64,000 nucleotides of DNA from Planctomycetota bacterium (GCA_035527715.1 DATKZY010000144.1:4444-68443), one strand, 5' to 3'; positions 4,287 through 47,283 are shown, numbered from the stretch's first letter. Numbers and translations are program-made. Notes: a model not told the origin generated them from the sequence alone.

Positions 4287-5936
4287 ATGCGCCAAGTGCT
4301 ACTGGCCCTTGTCGCTCTCTTGCCCGGTTGCGGGGTTCCGTCGTGGATGCACGTCGCTCGCCCGTCCTGGTTCACGTTGGGCTGCGCCGACACGATGGAG
4401 AAGGTGTTCCGCGATGAGCCGTGGACGCGCGGCCCGGCCGAGAAGCTGGCCATCGAGGCCGCGCGCAACGACGTCGAGGGTATCCAGCTCGTCGTAGCCC
4501 CGACCGGCAAGGATGGCCTCCGCTCCGTCACCGTCGAGGTGACCGACCTGCGGTGCGGCCGCTCGACCATCCCGAAGGCCAGCGTCACCTGGAACGTCGT
4601 CGGCTACGTGAAGACCGAGAAGCCGGCCTACAAAGCGCCCAGGGTCGGCTGGTGGCCCGACCCGCTCCTGCCGGCGACGCCCTTCGACGTGAAGGCCGGC
4701 GAGGTGCAGCCCGTGTGGCTCAGCGTGCGCGTGCCCGACGACGCGAGGCCCGGCCTCTATCGCGGCAAGGTCACCGTCCGCGCCGGCCGGCTGAAGCGCT
4801 CGCTGCCCATCGAGCTTCGCGTGTGGGACTTCGCCATCCCGAAGCAGCAGCACCTGGAGACCTGTTTCCTCCTCCGCCCCGACGAGCTACAGCGGTTCTA
4901 CCGCCTCAAGAGCGTGCCCATCGAGATGTATGAGTCGTGGATGGACTTCTGTCTCGACCGCCGCATCTGTCCCGCGCTCTACGATTGGACGCACCTCGAG
5001 CGGGATCTGGAGCGGCTCGTCGCCCGCCAGCTCGACCGCGGCGGCGCGTGCTTCGGCATCGCCTACGCCTGGCCACGAAAGGGCACGCCCGAGGAACGAG
5101 CGAAGCACAACGAGCCGCAGATCACCGCCATCCGCAAGCTCTACGAGCGCGTGAAGGCCCGCGGCTGGCTGCCCAAGGCCTACGTCTACTGCCACGACGA
5201 GGTCGGCAAGGAGCACTACGACATCGCCCGCGAGCTTTACTCCGCCCTCAAGAAGGCCATGCCCGGCCTCCGCCTGATGCAAACCTTCTACAAGGACAGC
5301 CCGATCCCCGCCCTCGACGACTGCCTCGACATCTGGGCGCCCGTCACCGGCCGCTATCGCAAGGAGGAGTTCCAGGCCCAGCAGGCCAAGGGCGACGAGG
5401 TCTGGTGGTACGTCTGCTGCGGCCCGGGCAAGCCCTACGCCAACCTGATGATCGAGTGGCCGGGCATTGACCACCGCATCCTGCTCTGGCAGACCTGGAA
5501 GCTCGGCGTCACCGGCTTCCTCTACTGGGGCATCAACGTCTTCGCCAGCAACTCGAAGGGCGAGAAGCGCTGGCCCGAGGCCGCCTGGGACCCCGCGACG
5601 TTTGTCAACCAGCAGGGCGGCCGCCACCACGGCGACGGACAACTCCTCTACCCCGGCCCCGACCGCCTGCCCCTCTCTTCAGTGCGCCTGGAGAACTTCC
5701 GCGACGGCCTGGAGGACTACGAATGCCTCTGGCTCCTCCGCGACGCCGTGACGAGGCTCAAGAAGGCGGGGGGCCACGACGCCCTGGTCGCCGAGGCCGA
5801 ACGTGTCCTCGCCATTGACGACGCGGTGGTGAAGGACCTGCGTCAGTTCACCCAGGACCCGCAGGCCCTGCGAGCCGCGCGGGCGGCTCTCGCCGCCCTC
5901 ATCGAGCGCGTTCACGCGGCGCTCGAACGCCGCTGA
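4287..5936 (+). CDS. Lipoprotein, DUF4091/GH123-like putative glycoside hydrolase
   Basis: ATG at 4287 with GAGGAGG 4 nt upstream. Lipobox LLPGCG. Composition and length (549 aa) resemble DUF4091 glycosidase-like proteins. The family call rests on recalled motifs, not an alignment. Confidence 0.55.
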   Translation: MRQVLLALVALLPGCGVPSWMHVARPSWFTLGCADTMEKVFRDEPWTRGPAEKLAIEAARNDVEGIQLVVAPTGKDGLRSVTVEVTDLRCGRSTIPKASVTWNVVGYVKTEKPAYKAPRVGWWPDPLLPATPFDVKAGEVQPVWLSVRVPDDARPGLYRGKVTVRAGRLKRSLPIELRVWDFAIPKQQHLETCFLLRPDELQRFYRLKSVPIEMYESWMDFCLDRRICPALYDWTHLERDLERLVARQLDRGGACFGIAYAWPRKGTPEERAKHNEPQITAIRKLYERVKARGWLPKAYVYCHDEVGKEHYDIARELYSALKKAMPGLRLMQTFYKDSPIPALDDCLDIWAPVTGRYRKEEFQAQQAKGDEVWWYVCCGPGKPYANLMIEWPGIDHRILLWQTWKLGVTGFLYWGINVFASNSKGEKRWPEAAWDPATFVNQQGGRHHGDGQLLYPGPDRLPLSSVRLENFRDGLEDYECLWLLRDAVTRLKKAGGHDALVAEAERVLAIDDAVVKDLRQFTQDPQALRAARAALAALIERVHAALERR

Positions 5937-6483
5937 CGAGGCGTTCGCCGAGGGCCTTCGCGGCGGCCAGGAGGTCGGGGCGGCGGCGGGCGGCGTCGGG
6001 CGGGCCAAGGCGTGGCTCGACCATGAGCTCGACGGGCTCGAACCGCCCGAACCAGCCGAAGTAGGCGGCCAGGCGGCGGGCCATCTCGCGGTAGAACGCG
6101 ATGGTGTCGGCCTCATAGGTCAGGAGAATCGCCGCCGCGCGCTGCCGCTCCTTCTTGCGGGGATCAGAGATGAAGCAGCGGCAGCGGTCGAAGAAGGTCT
6201 TGAGCTGGCCCGAGACGCCATCGAAGTAGACGGGCGAGGAGAAGAGCCACACGTCGGCATCTCGCAGCTTCCCGATGACGGGGGTGAGGCCGTCCTCCTG
6301 CGGGCAGCGGCCCGCGGCGAGGCAGGCGTCGCAGGCCTGGCAGCCGGCGTAGGTGAGTTCGTTCAGGCGCACGAGATCGACGGTGGCGCCCGCGGCCCGC
6401 GCGCCATCGAACGCGGCAGCCAGGAGCGTTTCCGAGTTGCCGCCGCGCCGAGGGCTGCCCGAGATGCCGAGAACCGTAACCAT
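5899..6483 (-). CDS. NADPH-dependent FMN reductase family flavoprotein (flavodoxin-like fold)
   Basis: Start MVTVLGISGSPRRGGNSETLL..., the classic GSxRxxS phosphate-binding loop of the PF03358-type family. GAGGAG RBS upstream. The track ORF 5899..8016 over-extends through the intergenic region. Confidence 0.75.
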   Translation of the reverse strand: MVTVLGISGSPRRGGNSETLLAAAFDGARAAGATVDLVRLNELTYAGCQACDACLAAGRCPQEDGLTPVIGKLRDADVWLFSSPVYFDGVSGQLKTFFDRCRCFISDPRKKERQRAAAILLTYEADTIAFYREMARRLAAYFGWFGRFEPVELMVEPRLGPPDAARRRPDLLAAAKALGERLVSGVRAPRERAR

Positions 6484-6594
6484 CGCGTTCTCCTCGACCG
6501 GGGGTTTACTCCCGCCCCCACACAGTGTATCCTTGGGGAGCGTTGGGGCAAGTCGCTTTCCTTCCCTCGTGTGGGAGTGCGGAGGATGACGCCG

Positions 6595-14778: not shown

Positions 14779-16086
14779 ATGAGCAACAGAGGAATGGGCC
14801 TGCACGTCCTCGCGGGACTTGCGCTGTTCGCCGCGCCGGGGTGCATGATCTGGCTTCGCCCCGAGTGGGCGGAACTGAAGAAGTCCACGCAGCCGCCGAT
14901 CCTGCGGCTGGGAGAAATCAAAGAGACCTTCACGGGAACCTGGGTGGCCGGGGGCACGCAGACGAGCCTCAGGAACCACCTGCTGAGCGCCTTTGCGCGG
15001 CCCGAGGCCGCTGCCCTGTTCTCCGGCGACCCGGACAGCCTGACGCTGAACCTCGATATTGTCTCGGACCACGAGGACGATATGCCGCGCATGTTCGTTC
15101 TGGGCTGCCTCAGCATTGGCACCCTGGGCCTGCTCCCGCTCACCTACCATTCGGAATGGAACTTGCAGTGCAGCGTGACCGTCAAAGGCCCCGACGGCAC
15201 GGTCGTGGCGAAGTACCCGGTCCAGACGACGGGCAGCTACGACATCTGGGCGCTGCCGCCCACGATGTTCACCTTGTTTGCCGGATCGTTCCGGGCGCCG
15301 GGCGACGCCGGGCGCATCTTCCGCAGGATGGTCCATCGCGTCGTCGCCGACGTCAGTAAGGCGGTGGACACCGACTATCCGCGCCTGGCCAGGTGGAAGG
15401 AGGCGCGGGCACTCGTCGCGGCGCAAGCGCCGCTGAACGCGGCCATCGGCGACACAGCGTACTGGGTGGTCTACAACATCTCGACGCCTCAGCCCTCGGG
15501 CGCGGGAGCCGCGGCCTCGGCGCGCGAGTACGCCCTCGAGCTGCACCGCACCCGCCCGCAGCCGGGGGCGGCACCGCTCCGCCGCCTCGTCGTCGGCACG
15601 CGAAGCGGGGCAGTGAAGACCGCCTGGCAATGGCGCGACCCGAAGAGCGTGGTCTTCTTCGCCCACGGCCGCCTGTGGCACCCCGAGTGGAAGACGGGCC
15701 AGCCGGGGGACAAGCTGGTCGCCGTCGGGTTCCGCGAGCGCGCGGTCACCGCCAAGGACCTCTTCGCGCCCGACGGCCTGCCTGCCCTCGCGGCGACGGA
15801 GTGGAACGACCTCGTGGTGGCCTGGAAGAACCGCGACCTGGCCACCCTCCTGCGCGAGGGACGCACCGCCGACCTGGGCGAGCATGTGGCGCAGATCGAG
15901 CAGTTGGCCCTGCGAGCCAACGAGTCGGCGGACCGCGAGAACAACAAGGCGGAGGAACTGAAGGCGGCGGGCAAGCCGGGCAGCGAACTCCACCGCGAGG
16001 CGGCGCTGGCCTACCGCGCCCGCATCGAGGTCCTCAAGCCCATCCTCGCCGCCATCAAGGCCGAGGTGGCCAATCGCCAACGATGA
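14779..16086 (+). CDS. Lipoprotein, uncharacterized family; paralog 1 of a 4-gene tandem array
   Basis: AAGGAG 10 nt upstream of ATG. Lipobox FAAPGCM. 435 aa. Shares conserved blocks with the next three genes: PPILRLGEIKE, DIVSDHEDD, YDIWALPPTMFT, DYPRLA, YWVVYNI, EYALELHR.RP, WQWRDP, RLWHPEWK, and a helical C-terminus ...ILKPILAAIKAEVANRQR. Confidence 0.8.
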   Translation: MSNRGMGLHVLAGLALFAAPGCMIWLRPEWAELKKSTQPPILRLGEIKETFTGTWVAGGTQTSLRNHLLSAFARPEAAALFSGDPDSLTLNLDIVSDHEDDMPRMFVLGCLSIGTLGLLPLTYHSEWNLQCSVTVKGPDGTVVAKYPVQTTGSYDIWALPPTMFTLFAGSFRAPGDAGRIFRRMVHRVVADVSKAVDTDYPRLARWKEARALVAAQAPLNAAIGDTAYWVVYNISTPQPSGAGAAASAREYALELHRTRPQPGAAPLRRLVVGTRSGAVKTAWQWRDPKSVVFFAHGRLWHPEWKTGQPGDKLVAVGFRERAVTAKDLFAPDGLPALAATEWNDLVVAWKNRDLATLLREGRTADLGEHVAQIEQLALRANESADRENNKAEELKAAGKPGSELHREAALAYRARIEVLKPILAAIKAEVANRQR

Positions 16087-16160
16087 GGCAGACCCTGCCC
16101 GGGCAGGCGGCGCGCCGCGGGCCGAGACCAGGTAGCTGGGAGGGGACGGAGCCTACTGCG

Positions 16161-17462
16161 ATGCGCACGAACACAACGGTTTCTCACTTGGCCTGCCTCG
16201 TCCTGATGGCCGGGGGGGCGGGATGCATGGTCCGCCTCAGCCCGAGGCGCGTCGAGTTGAAGCGCTCGGCCCGGCCTCCCATCTACCGCCTGGGCAAGAT
16301 CACCGAAGACCTCACGGGCACCTGGGCCGCCGCCGCGAAGACCAACGACTGGGGGGGCAAGAACCCCGTGGCCGCCTTGCTCCGGCAGTCCGAAGCCGCC
16401 TCGCTGTTCAGCAGCGACCCCAACAACCTGACGATGGACATTCATCTTGTGTCGAGCCACGAGGACGACGCCCCGCGCCTGGCCTTCCTGGCGCTCATGA
16501 GCATCTGTACGCTGGGCATCATGCCCCTCCACTACCGCTCGGAATGGACCTCGGACGTGACGGTGACCATTCGGACGCCGGACGGGGCAACCGTGGACGA
16601 GCATGCGCTCCGGGCCAAGGGGGCCTACGACATCTGGGCGATGCCGCTCACCATGTTCACCCTGGGCACCGCGGCCCTGCGCGGGCCGCTGGACGGGCAG
16701 GAGGTGCGCAACCGCATGACGCGGAAGGCCGCGGCCGACCTGATGGAGGCGGCCGAGCGCGACTACGACCGCCTGGCGCGCTGGCGCCAGGCCTGGGCCG
16801 TCATCGCCGACCAGCAGCCGATCAGCGTGCAGGCCGGGGCCGCCACGTACTGGGCGACCTACAACATCGCCGCAGCCACGGAGGCGGCTGGCCGCCGACG
16901 CGAGTATGTGCTGGAGATTCACCAGAGCCGGCCGCGGCGGGGCGCGGCGCCCTGGCGCAGCGTGGTGCTGGGCGACGCGAGGCTGGCCCCCGACGCGCCC
17001 TGGCGATGGCGCGACCCGCGCGACGTGGTCCTCTACGCGGACCAACGCCTCTGGCACCCCGAGTGGAAGGTCGAGGGGCTGCAGGCCCAGCTCGCCGCCG
17101 TCCAGTTCAAGGAGCGGCCCGTCACGGCGAAGGAGCTGTTCGCGCCCGACGGCCTCAGCGACCTGTCGGCGACCGACTGGAACGACCTCCTGGTCGCCTG
17201 GAAGAACAGGGAACTCGTCGCCCTCCTCCGCGAGGCGTCCACGGCGGACCTCACGGGCCACGTCAGCCAGATCGAGCAGCTCGTGCTGCGAGCCAACGAG
17301 TCGGCCGAGCGCGAGAAGGACGAGGCGCAGAAGCTCATCGCGGCAGGCAAGCCGGGCGGCGAACTCCACGCCGAGGCCGCGCGGGCCTACGCCGCCCGCA
17401 TCGAGATACTCAAGCCCATCCTCGCCGCCATCAAGGCCGAGGTGGCCAATCGCCAGCGGTGA
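16161..17462 (+). CDS. Lipoprotein, uncharacterized family; paralog 2
   Basis: ATG 16161. Lipobox MAGGAGCM. Same conserved blocks. The track ORF 15393..17462 is N-over-extended across the intergenic region. Confidence 0.8.
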   Translation: MRTNTTVSHLACLVLMAGGAGCMVRLSPRRVELKRSARPPIYRLGKITEDLTGTWAAAAKTNDWGGKNPVAALLRQSEAASLFSSDPNNLTMDIHLVSSHEDDAPRLAFLALMSICTLGIMPLHYRSEWTSDVTVTIRTPDGATVDEHALRAKGAYDIWAMPLTMFTLGTAALRGPLDGQEVRNRMTRKAAADLMEAAERDYDRLARWRQAWAVIADQQPISVQAGAATYWATYNIAAATEAAGRRREYVLEIHQSRPRRGAAPWRSVVLGDARLAPDAPWRWRDPRDVVLYADQRLWHPEWKVEGLQAQLAAVQFKERPVTAKELFAPDGLSDLSATDWNDLLVAWKNRELVALLREASTADLTGHVSQIEQLVLRANESAEREKDEAQKLIAAGKPGGELHAEAARAYAARIEILKPILAAIKAEVANRQR

Positions 17463-17537
17463 GGGGGCCTATGGCCGGGCAGGCCCCGCCGCAGGCTAAG
17501 TGGAGGAGGCGAAATTGCTCAACTGAGGAGCACGCGC

Positions 17538-18836
17538 ATGAACACGATGAGGAGAGCCCGGCACGTTCTCTGCCTCGTCGCCCTGCTGGGGCCAACGGGC
17601 TGCATGATCACCCTCGGCCCGCGGAGGGCCGAGCTGGACAGGTCGCCCAACCCGCCCGTGCTCCGGCTCGGCGAGATCAAGGAGACCCTCACAGGATCGT
17701 GGGTGACGCAGGGGGGAGCCGGCTCCCCGGTCATCACGGGCAAGCTGGCGCGGCTGTTCTCTCAGTCCGGCGCGGCCTCGCTGTTCTCCTCGGAGCCAGG
17801 GAATCTGGCCCTCAACATCGAGATCGTGGTGGACCACGAGGCGGACGACCCGAAGCTGGTCAAGCTGGCGTTCGTGAGCATCGCCACGCTTGGGCTCGTC
17901 CCGCTCAACGGGAACGCGGAATGGCACGCGCGGTGCCAGGTGCAGGTGGCTGCCGAGGACGGGGTCGCGATCGCCAAGTACCCGATCCATGTGACTGGCT
18001 CCTACAGCATCTGGGCATTCCCTCCGACCATGATCGCGTTCATGGGCGCCGCTGGCCGGGCGTGGGCAGACGCGAGGGCGATCTTCGAGCGGATGGCCAA
18101 CAACGTGGCGGCCGAGATCATGAAGGCCGTGGCGGCCGACTACCCGCGTCTCGCCGAGGCCAAGCGGGCCCGCGCGGGAGTCGCCGAGCAGCAGCCACTG
18201 AGCATCCGGGCCGGCGGCACGACGCTCTGGGTCACCTACAGCGTCGCGCAGTCGGGCGCCGCGGGCCAGGAGTATGTGCTGGAGCTCCACCGGAGTCGGC
18301 CGCCCCGCGGTGCGGCGCCGCTGCGCAAGCTGGCCGTCGGGTCGCGGGCCGGGGTCGCCGGCCCCGAGACGCCCTGGCAATGGCGTGACCCGACGAGCGT
18401 TGTGTTCCAGGCCGAGGGGCGCCTGTGGCATCTCGAATGGAAGGTCGAGGGGCCACTGCACAAGCTGGCCGCCGTCGAGGCCCGCGAGCGCAAGCTCACC
18501 GCGCGCGAGCTTCTGCGCCACGACTCGTTCCCCGATCTGCCCCCGGGGGACCAGAATAGCCTGCTGCTGGCATGGAAGACCCGCGACTTGCTCACGCTCC
18601 TGCGCGAGGCCAGCACGTCGGACCTGGAGGACCACATCGTGGGGATCGAGGAGATGGTCCTGCGAGCCAACGAGATGGCCGAGCGCGAGAAGGACGAGGC
18701 GCAGAAGCTCATCGCTGCGGGCAAGCCGGGCAGCGAAATCCACGCCGAGGCCGCGCGAGCTTACCGCGCATGCATCGAGATCCTCAAGCCCATCCTCGCC
18801 GCCATCAAGGCCGAGGTGGCCAACCGCGCGAAGTAG
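17538..18836 (+). CDS. Lipoprotein, uncharacterized family; paralog 3
   Basis: GAGGAG 7 nt upstream of ATG 17538. Lipobox LLGPTGCM. Same conserved blocks. Confidence 0.8.
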   Translation: MNTMRRARHVLCLVALLGPTGCMITLGPRRAELDRSPNPPVLRLGEIKETLTGSWVTQGGAGSPVITGKLARLFSQSGAASLFSSEPGNLALNIEIVVDHEADDPKLVKLAFVSIATLGLVPLNGNAEWHARCQVQVAAEDGVAIAKYPIHVTGSYSIWAFPPTMIAFMGAAGRAWADARAIFERMANNVAAEIMKAVAADYPRLAEAKRARAGVAEQQPLSIRAGGTTLWVTYSVAQSGAAGQEYVLELHRSRPPRGAAPLRKLAVGSRAGVAGPETPWQWRDPTSVVFQAEGRLWHLEWKVEGPLHKLAAVEARERKLTARELLRHDSFPDLPPGDQNSLLLAWKTRDLLTLLREASTSDLEDHIVGIEEMVLRANEMAEREKDEAQKLIAAGKPGSEIHAEAARAYRACIEILKPILAAIKAEVANRAK

Positions 18837-18934
18837 TTTCTGCAGGGGAAGCCCGAATCGTGGCGACGAGCGGCGGCGCTTGTCGCTCGACCGCCACAAG
18901 CCAGCCGCTTGCGGCCACACAGGAGGGCGTGAAC

Positions 18935-20212
18935 ATGACAAGATCGGCGGGGTGGCCGTTGTGCATGGGGCTGATCCTCTCTGCGTCAGGGTGCGTGGCC
19001 ACGTTTCGCCCAAAGTGGGCGGAGCTGGAGAGGCCGACCCAGCCGCCCATCCTGCGACTCGGGGAGGTGAAGGAGTCCTTCACCGGAACCTGGGTGAGCG
19101 CCGGCAAACAGAGAAGCATCAGGAACGTGCTCTTGAGCGCGCTTGCGCAGCCCCAGGCCGCTGCCTTGTTCTCCGACGACCCGGGCAATCTGACCCTCAA
19201 CCTGGACATCGTGTTGGACGGCGAGGACGACGACCCCCAGTCGTTCGAGATCTGCGGCAAGTGCGTGCTCACGCTCGGGCTAATCCCCCTGACATGGCAC
19301 ACCGAGCACAACCTGCGGTGCGACGTCTCCATCAAGAGCCCCGACGACTTCGTGGTTGCGAAGTACCGAACCCATGTGACAGGCTCAAACGACGTCCTCT
19401 TCCTGCCTCCCACGATGGTCACGATGCTCGGGGGCCCGGTCGGGGGAAGGATTGCCATCGCGAGCATCTTCCGGAGGATGGCCCGCAGTGTCGTTGCCGA
19501 CATCATGAAGAGGGTGACGACCGACTATCCGCGGCTGGCCGAGGTGAAGCAGTCGAGAGCCGTGGCTGCGGGGCAGGCGCCGCTGAGCGTGGTGATTGGG
19601 GATACGCCGTACTGGGTGGTCTACAATATCTCGGCGGCGGGGCCGAAGTGGGAGTACGCCCTGGAGCTTCACCGCAGCCGTCCGCAACCGGGGACGGCGC
19701 CGCTGCGAAGTCTGCTCGTCGGCACGCGAAGCGGGGAAGCCGCCTCGGCCTGGCAGTGGCGCGAGCCGAAGAGCGTCATCGTGTTCGCTCAGGGGCGCCT
19801 GTGGTATCCCGCATGGCGGACCGAGGGGCCGGCCGAGAAGCTGGCCGCCGTCGAGTTCAAGGAGCGAGCTGTGCCCGCGAAGGAGCTCTTTCAGCCTGGC
19901 TCGCTGGGCGGCCTGTCGGCCAGCGAATGGAACGACCTCCTGGTCGCCTGGAAGAACAGGGAACTCGTCGCCCTCCTTCGCGAGGCGTCCACGGCGGACC
20001 TCACGGGCCACGTCAGCCAGATCGAGCAGCTCGTGCTGCGGGCCAACGAGATGGCCGAGCGGGAGAAGGACGAAGCGCAGAAGCTCATCGCGGCAGGCAA
20101 GCCGGGCAGCGAACTCCACGCCGAGGCCGCGCGGGCCTACGCCGCCCGCATCGAGATCCTCAAGCCCGTCCTCGCCGCGATCAAGGCCGAGGTGGCCAAC
20201 CGCCAGAAGTGA
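18935..20212 (+). CDS. Lipoprotein, uncharacterized family; paralog 4
   Basis: AGGAGGG 7 nt upstream of ATG 18935. Lipobox LSASGCV. Same conserved blocks. The track ORF 18572..20212 is over-extended. Confidence 0.8.
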   Translation: MTRSAGWPLCMGLILSASGCVATFRPKWAELERPTQPPILRLGEVKESFTGTWVSAGKQRSIRNVLLSALAQPQAAALFSDDPGNLTLNLDIVLDGEDDDPQSFEICGKCVLTLGLIPLTWHTEHNLRCDVSIKSPDDFVVAKYRTHVTGSNDVLFLPPTMVTMLGGPVGGRIAIASIFRRMARSVVADIMKRVTTDYPRLAEVKQSRAVAAGQAPLSVVIGDTPYWVVYNISAAGPKWEYALELHRSRPQPGTAPLRSLLVGTRSGEAASAWQWREPKSVIVFAQGRLWYPAWRTEGPAEKLAAVEFKERAVPAKELFQPGSLGGLSASEWNDLLVAWKNRELVALLREASTADLTGHVSQIEQLVLRANEMAEREKDEAQKLIAAGKPGSELHAEAARAYAARIEILKPVLAAIKAEVANRQK

Positions 20213-35255: not shown

Positions 35256-36689
35256 TCACCGGTCCACGATCGAGCCGCGGGTCTTCAGGGCCTGGCGGAG
35301 CTTGGCCCCGTCGATCGCGCGCGGCGTAAGGCCCGCCGTGGCGCACCAGGCGGCGGCGAGCCCTGCGGCTTCGCCCATCGCCACGCAGTCGCCGGTGACG
35401 CGATAGGAGGCGTGGGCCTCGTGGGTGCCCGAGATGCAGCGGCCGGCCACGAGCAGCCGCTCCAGCCGCCGGGGCACGAGGCTGCGGTATGGGATGTGGT
35501 AGGGCTTGATGGCGGGGCGCCTCGCGTGGTCGCGGTCGGCCGGCCGCAGGGGGTGGATGTCCACGTTGAAGCTCGCCAGGCAGATGCCATCGGGGTGGCG
35601 GCGGCCGGCCACCATGTCGTCCAGCGTGACGACGTATTCGCCCAGGACGCGGCGGGTCTCGCGCACGCCGATCTGCTCCGCCGTGGCGACCAGGCGGGCG
35701 TCGCGCAGCTCGGGAATGTGGCGGAACAGCTCGGCCACCTGGCGGGCCTCGCGGCGCGCCGCGACGCACGCCGCCGAGAGCTGCCGGGCGTCCGTCGCAT
35801 CCACCTCGTAGACGTGGACGAGTTGGACCACGGCGTCGCCGGACCCCGGCAGGTTGATGATCCAGGGGCGGCAGAAGGGGGGCACTTGGGTGCCCTGCTC
35901 CTTGGCCGCCTGCTGCATCAGGCCATAGAGGTGGCCGGAGTTCTTCTGGAGGAAATGGCAGTTGGAGAGTCGGAACATCAGGGTCAGGGGCTGCATGAGG
36001 CCGTCCTCGGGCCGCCCCTTCTCGAAGGCGGCGCCCGCGCGGGCCGCCACGTCGCCGTCGCCCGTGCAGTCCACCACCACCTTGGCCAGGATGGCGGCGC
36101 GGCCCGACTTGTTCTCGACGAGGACTCCCTGGATGTTGGGGCCATCGAGGAGGGTGTCGGCCACCCAGGTGTGGAGCAGAAGCTCGACGCCCGCCTGCCC
36201 GGCCAACTCGTCGAGGAGGAACTTCATGGCCTCGGGGTCGAAGGTCGTGAGGAACCCCGGGTGGAGGGGATCGTCGCGCCAGGCGTTTCGCGCCTGGAGG
36301 GCGCGGACCAGTTCGCGGACGATGCCGCCCTTGTTGGCGTGGTCGAAGAGGGGGTTGAGGAGGCCGGTGGTCCACATGCCGCCGAGGGAGCCGTAGCGCT
36401 CGACGAGCATCGTCCTGGCTCCGGCCCGCGCGGCGGACAGCGCGGCTCCGATCCCCGCCGGCCCGCCGCCGGCCACGAGGACATCCACCTCCGCGACCAC
36501 GGGCGTCTGGCGTTCCCGCTCGGTGAGAAGCTTCATCGGCTCGGTTCTCCCTGTGCTCCCGTCGCCCCTGGGCGCGTCGCGGCGCGGGTCCGAGGCGCCC
36601 GCCAAGGCGTCGCGGGCCGCGAGGGCCGCCGCGGGAGCGATGGCGGCCGCCGCCAGGAAGTCGCGTCGAGGACGGCGCTGGGGGAGCAT
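35256..36689 (-). CDS. TAT-signal FAD-dependent oxidoreductase
   Basis: RRDFLAAAAIAPAAALAA twin-arginine signal. Dinucleotide-binding VDVLVAGGGPAGIGAALSAARAGA. Confidence 0.75.
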   Translation of the reverse strand: MLPQRRPRRDFLAAAAIAPAAALAARDALAGASDPRRDAPRGDGSTGRTEPMKLLTERERQTPVVAEVDVLVAGGGPAGIGAALSAARAGARTMLVERYGSLGGMWTTGLLNPLFDHANKGGIVRELVRALQARNAWRDDPLHPGFLTTFDPEAMKFLLDELAGQAGVELLLHTWVADTLLDGPNIQGVLVENKSGRAAILAKVVVDCTGDGDVAARAGAAFEKGRPEDGLMQPLTLMFRLSNCHFLQKNSGHLYGLMQQAAKEQGTQVPPFCRPWIINLPGSGDAVVQLVHVYEVDATDARQLSAACVAARREARQVAELFRHIPELRDARLVATAEQIGVRETRRVLGEYVVTLDDMVAGRRHPDGICLASFNVDIHPLRPADRDHARRPAIKPYHIPYRSLVPRRLERLLVAGRCISGTHEAHASYRVTGDCVAMGEAAGLAAAWCATAGLTPRAIDGAKLRQALKTRGSIVDR

Positions 36690-36736
36690 GCACTACCTCC
36701 TGCGGACGGGTCGGCCCGCAGGAGGCAGTGTAGTGC
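36690..36736 (-). promoter_or_regulatory. SD-sequestering 5'-UTR hairpin directly upstream of the FAD-oxidoreductase start codon; copy 1 of a repeated motif
   Basis: On the mRNA: GCACUAC-ACUGC-CUCCUGCGG / loop / CCGCAGGAG-GUAGUGC then AUG. The anti-SD CCUCCU pairs with the SD AGGAGG. Confidence 0.5.
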
Positions 36737-37214
36737 ACAGGGCGTTCAAAGGCAAGAGCGGCTACGGGACCAGGCCATACCTGTGCCTGTCACAGACGGC
36801 TTGTGTGTTCGCCTCCGGCCCACGCCTGGGCGACCCAGGACGGGTGCGATGACATGTCGAGCCATAATCTATGCCACCGTAGTGACTTGCATGTCAGCGG
36901 TGTGACAGGCACCGTGCCCCGACAGGCCCCGTGCCCCGCCGTGCCCCGTGCCGAGGAGGCCAAGAAGCGGTTTGAGAGGCTGAAGAAGCGCTTCGACGAG
37001 GCCGGCAAGCCTCCCGCCGCCCCCTGATGCCGCAAGGACGCCCGGTTCGTCGGTTCGGCGGCTCGGTGCCTCACACCCATGAGTTGGTTGTGGGCTCCGC
37101 AGGAGGCGCGGAGCCGCGTGGGGCGGGCTTGGCCATGTTGGCCCCAGCGCGAGCCGTACGGCAGTCTTGCAGCGGCTCCGTGGTTCCCTGCGGACACAGG
37201 CCGCGTCTCTCCGC

Positions 37215-37242
37215 TTGCATTCTGTGGGGGGGGCGCTACAAT
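37215..37242 (+). promoter_or_regulatory. Candidate sigma70-like promoter (TTGCAT, 16-nt spacer, TACAAT) about 65 nt upstream of the proline-racemase-family gene
   Basis: ttgcat-tctgtgggggggcgc-tacaat read directly. Promoter consensus for this lineage is uncertain. Confidence 0.3.
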
Positions 37243-37308
37243 CATCCTCGAAAGGGCTGCCCAACGGGGCTACCCACGAGTCAAATGGGAAATCTCGGGC
37301 GATAAGTG

Positions 37309-38352
37309 ATGAAGACATCCAAAGTGGTACATGTGGTGAGTTGCCACGCGGAAGGTGAAGTTGGCGATGTGATCGTCGGCGGAGTAGCGCCACCGCCCGG
37401 TGACACGATTTGGGAGCAGCGTTGTTTCATCGAGAAGGATGATCGTCTGCGGCGCTTTGTGCTCAACGAGCCGCGCGGGGGCGTCTTCCGGCACGTAAAC
37501 CTCTTGGTGCCGCCGAGGGATCCCCGTGCGCAGGTCGGCTGGATCATCATGGAGCCGGCTGATACTCCGCCGATGTCGGGGTCGAACTCGATCTGCGTGG
37601 CGACCGTGGTGCTCGACACCGGAATCGTTCCGATGACCGAGCCGGAAACAGAGTTGCTGATGGAAGCGCCGGGCGGTTTGGTCAAAGCGCGTGCACAATG
37701 TCGCAATGGCAAGGCGGAGCGAATCACGATCACCAACGTGCCTTCGTTTGCCGACAAGCTCGCGGCGCCGCTGGAAGTGGAAGGGCTCGGCACCCTCATT
37801 GTTGATACAGCCTATGGCGGCGACAGCTTCGTCATCGTCGATGCGAAAGCGTTGGGATTTGAAATCGTGCCGGACGAAGCCATCGAGCTTGTCGCGACCG
37901 GCATGAAGATCACGGCCGCGGCCAACGAGCAGCTCGGATTTCAGCACCCCGTGCATGCCGAGTGGAACCACATCTCGTTTTGTCAGTTTGCCGGCCCGCT
38001 TGCGGAGGAGAATGGCGTGCTGGTGGGGCCGAACGCCGTGTGCGTGCGCCCCGGCAAGATCGACCGGTCGCCAACCGGCACGGGTTGTTCGGCGCGCATG
38101 GCGGTTCTGCATGCGCAGGGACGCATGCAGGTCGGGGGCCGCTATCGGGCGCGCTCGATCATTGGCTCCGAGTTCGAATGTGGCATCGAGTCGTTGACTT
38201 CGCTGGGCAAGATGGATGCGATCGTGCCGACTGTTTCGGGGCGGGCGTGGGTCACGGGAACGCATCAACTCATGCTCGACCCGGACGACCCGTGGCCCGA
38301 AGGCTATCGGATCGCCGACACGTGGCCGGTCCTAGGAAGGAGAAGAACATGA
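37309..38352 (+). CDS. Proline racemase / 4-hydroxyproline epimerase family protein
   Basis: [10 protein letters not shown] and [14 protein letters not shown] are the two catalytic-Cys motifs of the PF05544 family. 347 aa. Lower GC than the surroundings. Confidence 0.75.
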
Positions 38353-42058: not shown

Positions 42059-42062
42059 GAGA

Positions 42063-42108
42063 CTGCCTCCTGCGGATGGGTAGTCCCGCAGGAGGCAGTG
42101 TAATGCAC
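42063..42108 (-). promoter_or_regulatory. SD-sequestering 5'-UTR hairpin upstream of the PQQ-propeller gene; copy 2 of the motif at 36690-36736
   Basis: ctgcctcctgcgg-atgggtagtc-ccgcaggaggcag, a perfect 13-bp stem. The 3' arm contains the SD 4 nt before AUG. The 5' flank tgcattacactg is shared with copy 1. Confidence 0.5.
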
Positions 42109-42131
42109 TTGGCGTCGGAAGACAAGGGCGG

Positions 42132-43214
42132 CTACGGCACGAGCTGCTCGATGGGGAAGCGCGACTTGGGCGGAGCGGCGGGGGCCTCATCGGCAGCCTC
42201 GGCGACGAGCTTCGGCGGCTTCGCGGCGCTCTGGGCCTGCCGGAGGGCGGCCAACTCGGCCTTCGCTGCGGCAACGTCGCGGGCGACCGCGAGGGCGATC
42301 TCATCGGGCGGCAGCGGAGGCAGCGGCGCCTCGGCGAGCCGCTCGGCCTTGGCCGGCTTGGGCGCCGGGGCCGAGGCGGTCGCCGGCGCGGGCGGCGCAG
42401 GGGGCGCCAGGGGCGGCGTCGGCTCGGCCGAGGCCAGGGTGGCCGGCTTCGACGCCGACGGGACCTCGGCCGGCGGGCCGAACTCAAATGGCGAGGAGCG
42501 CCTCTCCCCGCGGTCGGCCTTCGCCGCCCGCGCGGGCGGCGCCGAGGCCACAACGGGCGGCTTGGGTGCGGCAGCAGGGGCCGGCGCGGGCGGCGTCGCG
42601 GTCACAGCGGCCGGCTTCGGCGCCGTCGGGGCCTTGGCCACCTTCGTCGTATTCCCTGCCTTCGCCACGCGGGTCTCGGTCACCTCGCTCCGCTCACCGA
42701 ACGGGATCCAGCCGAACCAGCCGCAGAAGAAGTCGGCCATCTTGAAGTAGTTCAGGTTCCACATCACCCCCACGTAGCCGAGATGGAGGTAGTGGACGCA
42801 GGCGGGGCGGTACTTGGTCTTGCCCTCCTTGGCGCTCTGGGCGATGCCGATGACGCCGACCCTGTGGCTCTCCGTGGTGGCCTTGTCCTTGTCGTTGAAG
42901 CCCTTCCAGCTATTCTCCTCGTGGCCCCAGAAGAGCAAGCCGGAGTTGTTCTGGTGGTGCTCGCCGGCGCCCAGCTTGCCGCCGCCCATCCCCACGAAAT
43001 AGCCGTCCACCTTGCTGTACCCCAGCGGCGTGACCATCGGGCAGTTCGCGTAGAGCCCGAACTGCGGCTTCTTCGAGAACGTGAGCCCCAGGTCCATCAT
43101 CTGGCTCGCGTCGGCCCCCCGGTTCCTGAGATACGTGCAGCCCGACGCCCCGGCGACCAGCAGCGCACAAACCGCGATGGACAATCTTTTCCCGTGAACA
43201 ATCCCACTACGCAT
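42132..43214 (-). CDS. Lipoprotein with a conserved Cys/His-containing N-domain and a Pro/Ala-rich low-complexity C-terminus; paralog of 45232..45819
   Basis: Lipobox [43 protein letters not shown]...CVHYLHLGYVG matches the second lipoprotein. C-terminal APAPKP-type repeats. Confidence 0.7.
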   Translation of the reverse strand: MRSGIVHGKRLSIAVCALLVAGASGCTYLRNRGADASQMMDLGLTFSKKPQFGLYANCPMVTPLGYSKVDGYFVGMGGGKLGAGEHHQNNSGLLFWGHEENSWKGFNDKDKATTESHRVGVIGIAQSAKEGKTKYRPACVHYLHLGYVGVMWNLNYFKMADFFCGWFGWIPFGERSEVTETRVAKAGNTTKVAKAPTAPKPAAVTATPPAPAPAAAPKPPVVASAPPARAAKADRGERRSSPFEFGPPAEVPSASKPATLASAEPTPPLAPPAPPAPATASAPAPKPAKAERLAEAPLPPLPPDEIALAVARDVAAAKAELAALRQAQSAAKPPKLVAEAADEAPAAPPKSRFPIEQLVP

Positions 43215-47027: not shown

Positions 47028-47134
47028 CTCCTTCCGTTGTGACACTCCAGCCGAGTGAAGTGCCCGCCCCCACCGACCTTGTGTCGGTGGAGCGAAGGAT
47101 TGGCCACTACGCCAAGCGGCCCTCACCCCCCCAT

Positions 47135-47180
47135 CCCCCTCTCCCCCCGCCCGCCGCGCGGCGGGCGGGGGGAGAGGGGG
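47135..47180. repeat. Perfect 23-bp GC palindrome (46 nt) followed by G-runs, between the radical SAM gene and acr3
   Basis: ccccctctccccccgcccgccgcg|cgcggcgggcggggggagaggggg then agaagagggggagg. Confidence 0.7.
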
Positions 47181-47283
47181 AGAAGAGGGGGAGGCTCACG
47201 GCACAGTAGTTGCCAATCCCTCGCTCCACTGGGGCAAGCCCAGTGGGGGCGTGCACATCAGTCGGGCGAAGTGTTACCTTCAG

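Follow-up and report, generated by a model that had tools for sequence, protein, structure and literature searches.

In the transposable elements IS10 and IS50, the region where translation starts pairs, through an inverted repeat, with sequence lying just upstream of it. Transcription from the element's own promoter begins inside or past the 5′ arm of this repeat, and only transcripts that arrive from outside fold up and are translationally silent. For this mode of control, fold-back inhibition in IS10 (Tn10) and IS50 (Tn5), PMC13181058 cites Davis, Simons & Kleckner (1985, Cell 43:379). Two genes in a DNA stretch from Planctomycetota share with these elements a ribosome-binding site paired with upstream sequence, here in predicted stems of 15-17 bp that bury it, and we describe how their leaders compare with fold-back elements and with other hairpins that mask translation starts.

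The stretch that we analyzed (the window, 64,000 nt, G+C content ~68%) belongs to a metagenome contig (ENA ERZ27256827, ERZ27256828, ERZ27256834) that carries the NCBI label Planctomycetota. A preliminary description had reported a hairpin over the Shine-Dalgarno (SD) sequence of a gene for a FAD-dependent oxidoreductase; the RNA quoted there is the reverse complement of window positions 36690-36736, so that both genes discussed below lie on the minus strand (Table 1). The window has exactly two copies of the 22-mer TGCAYTACACTGCCTCCTGCGG, both on the minus strand (36716-36737 and 42086-42107); from 100 shuffles, 0.00 would be expected. The reported recurrence of a 22-nt arm before an unrelated PQQ-propeller gene thus holds, but the unit shared by the two sites measures 82 nt, not 22. 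According to RNAfold, site 1 forms an unbroken stem of 17 bp, G-U pairs counted (-35.2 kcal/mol, z = -6.4), and the stem of site 2 comprises 15 bp (-30.1 kcal/mol, z = -6.0); AGGAGG is wholly within the 3′ arm in both cases, 6 nt (site 1) or 7 nt (site 2) before the ATG. These folds bear out the pairing of CCUCCU with AGGAGG directly upstream of the ATG; the stem, which had been described as GC-rich, interrupted and 16 bp long, is indeed G+C-rich, but it is continuous and spans 17 bp at site 1 and 15 bp at site 2.

Table 1. Positions of the hairpin arms, promoter-like hexamers and genes in the 64-kb window. Arms and loops are those of the predicted folds.
Feature	Position	Strand	Remarks
Site 1, -35-like TTGCCT	36750..36755	-	TTG and final T invariant in 7/7 sequences
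Site 1, -10-like TACACT	36727..36732	-	17 nt after -35; invariant in 7/7; last bases within 5′ arm
Site 1, 5′ arm	36714..36730	-	anti-SD CCTCCT 36720-36725
Site 1, loop	36708-36713	-	
Site 1, 3′ arm	36691..36707	-	Shine-Dalgarno AGGAGG 36696-36701
Site 1, relic ctg gtc ccg TAG (L V P stop)	36762..36773	-	matches last 3 codons and stop of site-2 lipoprotein gene
Site 2, -35-like TTGTCT	42120..42125	-	TTG and final T invariant in 7/7 sequences
Site 2, -10-like TACACT	42097..42102	-	17 nt after -35; invariant in 7/7
Site 2, 5′ arm	42085..42099	-	anti-SD CCTCCT 42090-42095
Site 2, loop	42077-42084	-	
Site 2, 3′ arm	42062..42076	-	Shine-Dalgarno AGGAGG 42066-42071
Third promoter-like site, TTGCCC-16 nt-TACACT	6524..6551	-	40 nt before ATG (6483) of FMN-reductase gene
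FAD-dependent oxidoreductase gene, PF12831, 477 aa	35256..36689	-	ATG 36689-36687
BamB-like / PQQ beta-propeller gene, PF13360, 409 aa	40829..42058	-	start codon 42058-42056; identical to P0121
Lipoprotein-like gene, 360 aa	42132..43214	-	lipobox-like LVAGASGC by eye; no Pfam family

A hairpin that buries the SD sequence precedes both genes, as first observed, and it is conserved. Among the SD-preceded candidate starts listed, several of which are internal to genes, the two leaders gave by far the most stable local folds before identified gene starts; comparable folds (approximately -31 to -33 kcal/mol) appeared in that list only at gene-internal candidate starts and in the reverse-strand reading of site 2. 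SD sequences are in common use before genes in the window, which makes AGGAGG plausible as a functional ribosome-binding site. Rfam returned no match anywhere in the window at the gathering score, and a permissive search (E ≤ 1) over 36600-37500, which covered site 1 only and left site 2 at the gathering threshold, likewise returned none.

The oxidoreductase encoded at site 1 carries a 51-aa N-terminal extension (MLPQRRPRRDFLAAAAIAPAAALAARDALAG...; 36537-36689, minus strand), and its closest homologues start at its Met52. This extension contains a twin-arginine-like RRDFL motif, read by eye; a TAT-signal HMM gave no match to the N-terminus. The same homologues, 71-79% identical and ~425 aa long, have N-termini that correspond to residue 52 of the window protein; they occur in other, non-syntenic gene contexts and carry no such module or leader, and the comparison of orthologues below rests on the leaders of the PQQ gene. 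The PQQ-propeller protein has a Sec-type signal peptide (MFSLPLGLLLALSLGQASGA). Upstream of its gene, and syntenic with it in orthologous loci, stands a gene for a lipoprotein-like protein that ends ..IEQLVP and whose TAG (42134-42132) lies 6 nt before the -35-like hexamer; its product is 67% identical to its counterpart in one related locus (L161) and 77% identical, over the aligned N-terminal 181 residues, to that in another (L165). The earlier view that one structured, SD-occluding element is shared by two unrelated genes for apparently exported proteins gains support from the folds and from conservation before the PQQ orthologues.

Upstream of site 1, no co-directional gene was found for ~770 nt. 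The gene-free stretch on this side (36765-37305) holds a perfect 12-nt inverted repeat (GTGCCTGTCACA / TGTGACAGGCAC, 36783-36794 and 36901-36912), 17-nt tandem units of the form GACAGGC(A/C)CCGTGCCCC at 36904-36948, and a third CCGCAGGAGGC, on the plus strand, at 37097-37107; Rfam gave no match for this stretch. Elsewhere in the window, positions 14800-20200 comprise four tandem units of ~1376 nt with 60-80% identity, probably a paralogous gene array, and an intergenic, long and near-perfect G+C palindrome at 47130-47190 (cccctctccccccgcccgccgcgcggcgggcggggggagagggg) weakly matches the hairpin model.

The 82-nt repeat common to the two sites (36692-36773 versus 42062-42143, 83% identity) reaches from the start codon to ~35 nt 5′ of the hairpin. 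Its upstream part reads TTGCCT or TTGTCT, exactly 17 nt, and TACACT; the 5′ arm starts within TACACT, with the anti-SD CCUCCU ~2 nt past the hexamer. At site 1, the 5′ edge of the duplicated module is marked by a relic of lipoprotein coding sequence (Table 1), at which no open reading frame ends. Because site 1 carries this relic and the FAD homologues lack the module, site 1 is a secondary, transplanted copy: the module is ancestral at site 2, in the short gap between the lipoprotein and BamB/PQQ-propeller genes, and was later copied before the FAD-oxidoreductase gene. Within boxes and arms, 2 of the 37 positions differ between the window copies, versus 12 of the 42 other positions (Fisher p = 0.008). 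Around the 82-nt unit we found no terminal inverted repeats, target-site duplication, RAYT or transposase, and its edges are simply the stop region of one gene and the start codon of the next. A covariance model of the module (R1) identified two copies in the 64-kb window and, at each related locus, the orthologous copy alone; neither the window nor ~600 kb of other loci gave a further one.

We then turn to the hexamers that make up the upstream part of the module. On the two strands of the 64-kb window there are only five occurrences of TACACT; three of these five have TTG 16-17 nt upstream, and all three are 37-40 nt before the start of a Pfam-matched gene. The combined pattern of TTG and TACACT accordingly has three matches in the window, versus 0.04 expected. 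The third lies in a divergent intergenic region before an unrelated FMN-reductase gene (5899-6483), with no anti-SD arm and no hairpin, and it supports TACACT as a probable -10 box in this genome. An identical -10 hexamer before three redox or propeller genes may also indicate a common sigma factor or regulon; FMN reductase, FAD oxidoreductase and PQQ propeller might together form a small TACACT regulon.

The arrangement has the hallmarks of a sigma-70-type promoter, namely boxes 17 ± 1 nt apart that are conserved around a drifting spacer and stand 37-40 nt before the ATG. Against the consensus used, that of E. coli, the sites score 8/12, which is below the scan threshold of 9/12 and explains why the promoter scan was silent; the promoter call rests on conservation instead. 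A literature search for mapped promoters in Planctomycetes gave nothing useful. At both sites, a conserved signature of the sigma-70 type, as read from the aligned sequences, overlaps the 5′ arm of the conserved SD-sequestering hairpin. Owing to this overlap of the -10 box with the arm, the transcription start predicted from promoter geometry (~7 nt after the -10) falls inside the 5′ arm, at ~36719-36721 for site 1 and ~42089-42091 for site 2. The preliminary description had placed the hairpin in the 5′ UTR. That placement is not supported, given that the -10 of the conserved promoter overlaps the 5′ arm and that the gene's own mRNA, with its predicted start inside the arm, should lack the anti-SD. 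An SD-sequestering hairpin in DNA is not necessarily present in the productive mRNA, and the position of the promoter matters before such a hairpin is called a riboregulator.

Comparison with relatives extended these observations beyond the window. The PQQ gene has syntenic orthologues with 76-85% protein identity, preceded by a lipoprotein-like gene whose product is 67-77% identical to the window copy, and the module is present before these orthologues in four other Planctomycetota lineages (L154, L157, L160 and L161). In all four, the order is lipoprotein stop (..IEQLVP), 6-8 nt, TTGCCT or TTGCGT, exactly 17 nt, TACACT, 0-2 nt, GCC(U/G)CCUG, a variable stem top and loop, CAGGAGGCAG, 2-5 nt, and ATG or GTG. 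Together, the two window sites and five orthologous lineages make up seven sequences, of which all but L165 bear the hairpin. The spacer is exactly 17 nt in each of the seven. Across the six hairpin-bearing sequences, invariant columns number 6/6 in the -10, 4/6 in the -35, 1/17 in the spacer, 0/10 in the loop, 7/11 in the 5′ arm and 9/14 in the 3′ arm. TACACT is invariant even in L157 and L160, where its 3′ pairing partner has changed, so that the stem does not account for the conservation of this hexamer.

The hairpin has its own conservation pattern. Stem tops vary (GCGG/CCGC, GG/CC, GCA/UGC, GCG/CGC) with pairing retained, and loops range from 4 to ~15 nt, the individual inter-arm distances being 4, 10, 10, 12, 12 and ~15 nt. 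Paired cells amounted to 85%, versus 30-52% with the partners slid, and the covariation score was reached in 1 of 500 shuffles. Double changes were found in two pairs, both at the stem top and including a G-C to A-U exchange; the covariation signal is modest because the core must stay an SD sequence. In four other lineages, the hairpin is thus kept before the PQQ orthologues despite differing loops and stem tops.

Promoter and hairpin occur together in six sequences, the promoter alone in one (L165) and neither in two (the L162/163 and L164 lineages); among the lineages compared, none has the hairpin without the promoter. L165 keeps TTGCCT-17-TACACT, has no anti-SD arm and leaves its GAGGAG open, and in its gap of 152 nt a separate G+C hairpin of 11 bp, with UUCAU directly after it, lies downstream of the stop codon and upstream of the -35. 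In L160 (3535-3925), an insertion of ~390 nt, flanked by the direct repeat CCGTAGCC, separates the lipoprotein stop from the module; a motif of this insertion (tatggagtgcg..ccgcttt..cccgcggagcgg) recurs in L164 (2630-2680), as would be expected of a MITE-like family within these Planctomycetota.

Wider searches returned the hairpin core without the module. A scan of a genome collection (GTDB, 185,579 representative genomes) with the 17-mer TACACTGCCTCCTGCGG gave 26 matches, approximately the number expected by chance and in unrelated taxa. None was in a related context, and the 3′ arm was absent in all except one (L015). This pattern is too specific: in the orthologues, CCTCC is followed by TGG, TGCA or TGCGC, and the 17-mer scan therefore says little about the distribution of the module. 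The exception (2983-3047 of L015, minus strand, in the Steroidobacteraceae MAG OZ257256.1) consists of a stop codon, 14 nt and TACACTGCCTCCTGCGGtcaCGCAGGAGGCGGTttcgATG; it is an unrelated intercistronic SD-sequestering hairpin that has the 17-mer in common with the module and no -35 box.

A scan of metagenomes for the core CCTCCTGCGG-N6-14-CCGCAGGAGG yielded at least 119 loci of mixed character: terminators, occurrences in coding sequence and unrelated ribosome-binding-site hairpins before candidate starts. By automatic screen, an ATG 3-11 nt downstream opens a long ORF at ~19 of these loci (at least 119), a count on the upper side in that some of these ATGs lie inside longer open frames and fewer are likely to be true starts. 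The TACACT flank was absent in all core loci listed (at least 119). Four wetland or freshwater metagenome contigs (L038, L075, L079 and L106) have in common a recurrent leader, ..CAGCCTCCTGCGG-11 nt-CCGCAGGAGGCTG..ATGTTAAAAG, that precedes an ORF of 313 codons in L075 and L106 and an ORF ending at the contig edge in the others, and that seems to represent a conserved SD-hairpin family distinct from the module.

The reading that we favor, to which we assign a probability of roughly 0.45, is that the hairpin silences only read-through transcripts, and that transcripts from the gene's own promoter are translatable, following a fold-back logic like that of IS10 and IS50. In the sequences, the signature of a sigma-70-type promoter (TTGCCT, 17 nt, TACACT) is followed directly by the anti-SD arm (GCCUCCUG...), and this arm pairs with the AGGAGG of the gene itself to give a very stable hairpin, whose end lies 2-5 nt upstream of the start codon. 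With the 5′ arm beginning inside the -10, the anti-SD would occupy approximately positions -6 to +1 and be missing from own-promoter mRNA. Initiation inside the 5′ arm would thus produce an mRNA without the anti-SD, leaving the SD comparatively open and the gene translated. A transcript entering from upstream would instead carry both arms, fold and lock the SD, and it may also pause or end there. At site 2, where the lipoprotein gene stops 6 nt before the -35, there is no room for a terminator, and the hairpin would act as an insulator that makes translation dependent on the gene's own promoter. Predicted accessibilities are consistent with this scheme: the probability that the SD is unpaired is <0.001 at 37 °C in the full hairpin and 0.12-0.19 in transcripts starting 7 nt after the -10. 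Moreover, a lock of -30 to -35 kcal/mol on a gene conserved at 76-85% protein identity is more readily understood if that lock is absent from the productive mRNA.

Several points temper this reading. The hairpin-bearing copies share one ancestor, so that the juxtaposition of -10 and arm amounts to a single evolutionary observation. At site 1, the ~770 nt without a co-directional gene leave little obvious read-through to insulate against, and by a rough estimate that leaves the SD and the -10 out of account, the stem at site 1 is not significantly conserved. The shortened transcripts are still predicted to be partly structured around the SD.

A bolder proposal, possible but in our judgment doubtful, is that promoter, lock and SD make up a portable cassette that brings its own translational insulation and that was copied as a whole before an unrelated gene, which it now drives and which gained an export signal at the same point; as such it would be a chromosomal, non-transposon counterpart of IS10/IS50 fold-back inhibition. 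Its setting would be the tiny gene gaps of these G+C-rich Planctomycetota, which lack U-tract terminators; with an anti-SD between the -10 and +1, the gene would be translatable only from its own promoter.

The most familiar alternative is a cis-regulatory leader, in which the whole hairpin belongs to the 5′ UTR or intercistronic region and translation is off until a trans factor acts, whether an anti-antisense sRNA, an RNA-binding protein or helicase, or an RNase that removes the 5′ arm. SD-sequestering 5′ UTR structures opened by sRNAs are known, for example in ISPpu9 (PMC8450116). The fully buried SD and the conservation of the hairpin with variable loops fit such a leader, the synteny of the lipoprotein and PQQ genes makes a bicistronic mRNA plausible, and the invariant UACACUGCCUCC could equally be the target of a trans-acting RNA. 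We nevertheless consider a leader of this type unlikely, as it leaves unexplained both the invariant TTGCCT-17-TACACT around a freely varying spacer and the invariance of TACACT where its 3′ partner has changed (L157, L160). A perfect G+C stem of 15-17 bp and -30 to -35 kcal/mol is much stronger than the stems that are usually invaded; L165 retains the promoter boxes and not the anti-SD arm; and no Rfam family matched, even at E ≤ 1 (36600-37500). Quite unlikely, in turn, is a U-tract-less terminator or 3′-end stabilizer of the lipoprotein gene, squeezed into the 62-75-nt gap, whose arms happen to overlap the promoter and SD of the next gene, with SD occlusion as a by-product. Like a Rho-independent terminator, the module has a stable G+C stem directly downstream of a gene; the stop codon 6-8 nt before the -35 leaves no other space for termination, and L165, with its 152-nt gap, combines a separate strong hairpin between stop and promoter with the lack of an anti-SD arm. 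Unlike such terminators, however, the stem is followed at no locus by a U-tract (the tail is CUCAUGUUC or GCAUGCUC), its 3′ arm is the SD of the next gene, and the terminator scan makes no call; furthermore, the arm is the SD complement in every hairpin-bearing lineage rather than an arbitrary G+C stem, and site 1 has no upstream gene to terminate. This explanation overlaps the insulator reading in that both act on read-through transcripts.

Mobility offers another account of the two copies, 5.4 kb apart and before unrelated genes: a REP/MITE-like palindromic repeat, such as the preliminary description had envisaged, could have landed before both and been co-opted. The module resembles REP/BIME and MITE elements as a short G+C-rich palindrome with more than one intergenic copy; the site-1 copy has evidently been transplanted, with 12 nt of foreign coding sequence, and in L160 the unrelated MITE-like insertion of ~390 nt adjoins the module at the CCGTAGCC repeat. 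This account is very unlikely all the same, and the claim of a REP-like insertion is unsupported by the R1 search, which found no further copy in the window or ~600 kb. REP-type repeats are by definition dispersed in many extragenic copies; the window and the ~600 kb hold two copies plus the orthologous ones, one per related locus. The two window copies sit exactly at start codons and include a promoter, site 2 occupies a fixed orthologous position in five lineages, and neither terminal repeats nor target duplications border the 82 nt. The 17-mer, too specific a pattern as noted, has no related match in 185,579 representative genomes. A perfect inverted repeat over -10 to +25, the usual place for a repressor, would also suit a palindromic DNA operator for a dimeric repressor over the promoter. 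To this we give only a slight chance: half-site spacing varies from 4 to ~15 nt among orthologues with complementarity kept, which points to a folded single strand rather than a protein site of fixed geometry, and one half-site is simply the SD. RNA thermometers such as ROSE and fourU have weak, imperfect stems that melt at 30-42 °C. Like them, the module has its SD covered by a 5′ hairpin directly upstream of the start codon, but its stem is perfect, with neither internal mismatches nor bulges, G+C-rich and predicted to be closed at 85 °C, where the minimum free energy is still approximately -10 kcal/mol. The predicted probability of an unpaired SD stays below 1% over 20-85 °C (≤ 0.007 at 85 °C), and Rfam gave no ROSE or fourU match (gathering score; for site 1 also E ≤ 1). 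The chance that the module is a thermometer is thus close to nil, excluded as it is by predicted stability, and the term thermosensor-like, used for it in the preliminary description, finds no support.

Were the predicted start sites true, a single 40-base stretch would serve as promoter, as translational lock on foreign transcripts and as ribosome-binding site, and would uncouple neighboring genes compactly without a terminator. A mechanism known from transposons would thereby be extended to chromosomal genes of the ordinary kind, and this in a phylum with hardly any characterization of promoters and leaders, and a cassette of this kind would be reusable to wire a new gene. Should the hairpin instead lie in the mRNA, it would constitute an unusually strong translational lock requiring an activator.

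Set against known systems, the module has its closest likeness in IS10 and IS50; its conserved promoter overlaps the 5′ arm, and the predicted +1 would lie inside that arm. Unlike these elements, it serves ordinary chromosomal genes (PF12831, PF13360), with an orthologous position and no transposase or IS ends; here the 5′ arm is a literal anti-SD that abuts the -10, and the start site is a predicted one. By this analogy, the module appears to work like the fold-back class, of which it is not an IS-family member. With generic SD-sequestering leader hairpins it shares the pairing of CCUCCU with AGGAGG immediately 5′ of the start codon; those found in metagenomes, however, have the core only, without flanking promoter boxes, and R1 matches them at positions 39-78 only, so that they are analogues of the module and not homologues. 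Hairpins that pair an anti-SD with an SD are a common and repeatedly invented device, and what is particular to the present case is the fusion of such a hairpin with a promoter and the reuse of the whole cassette.
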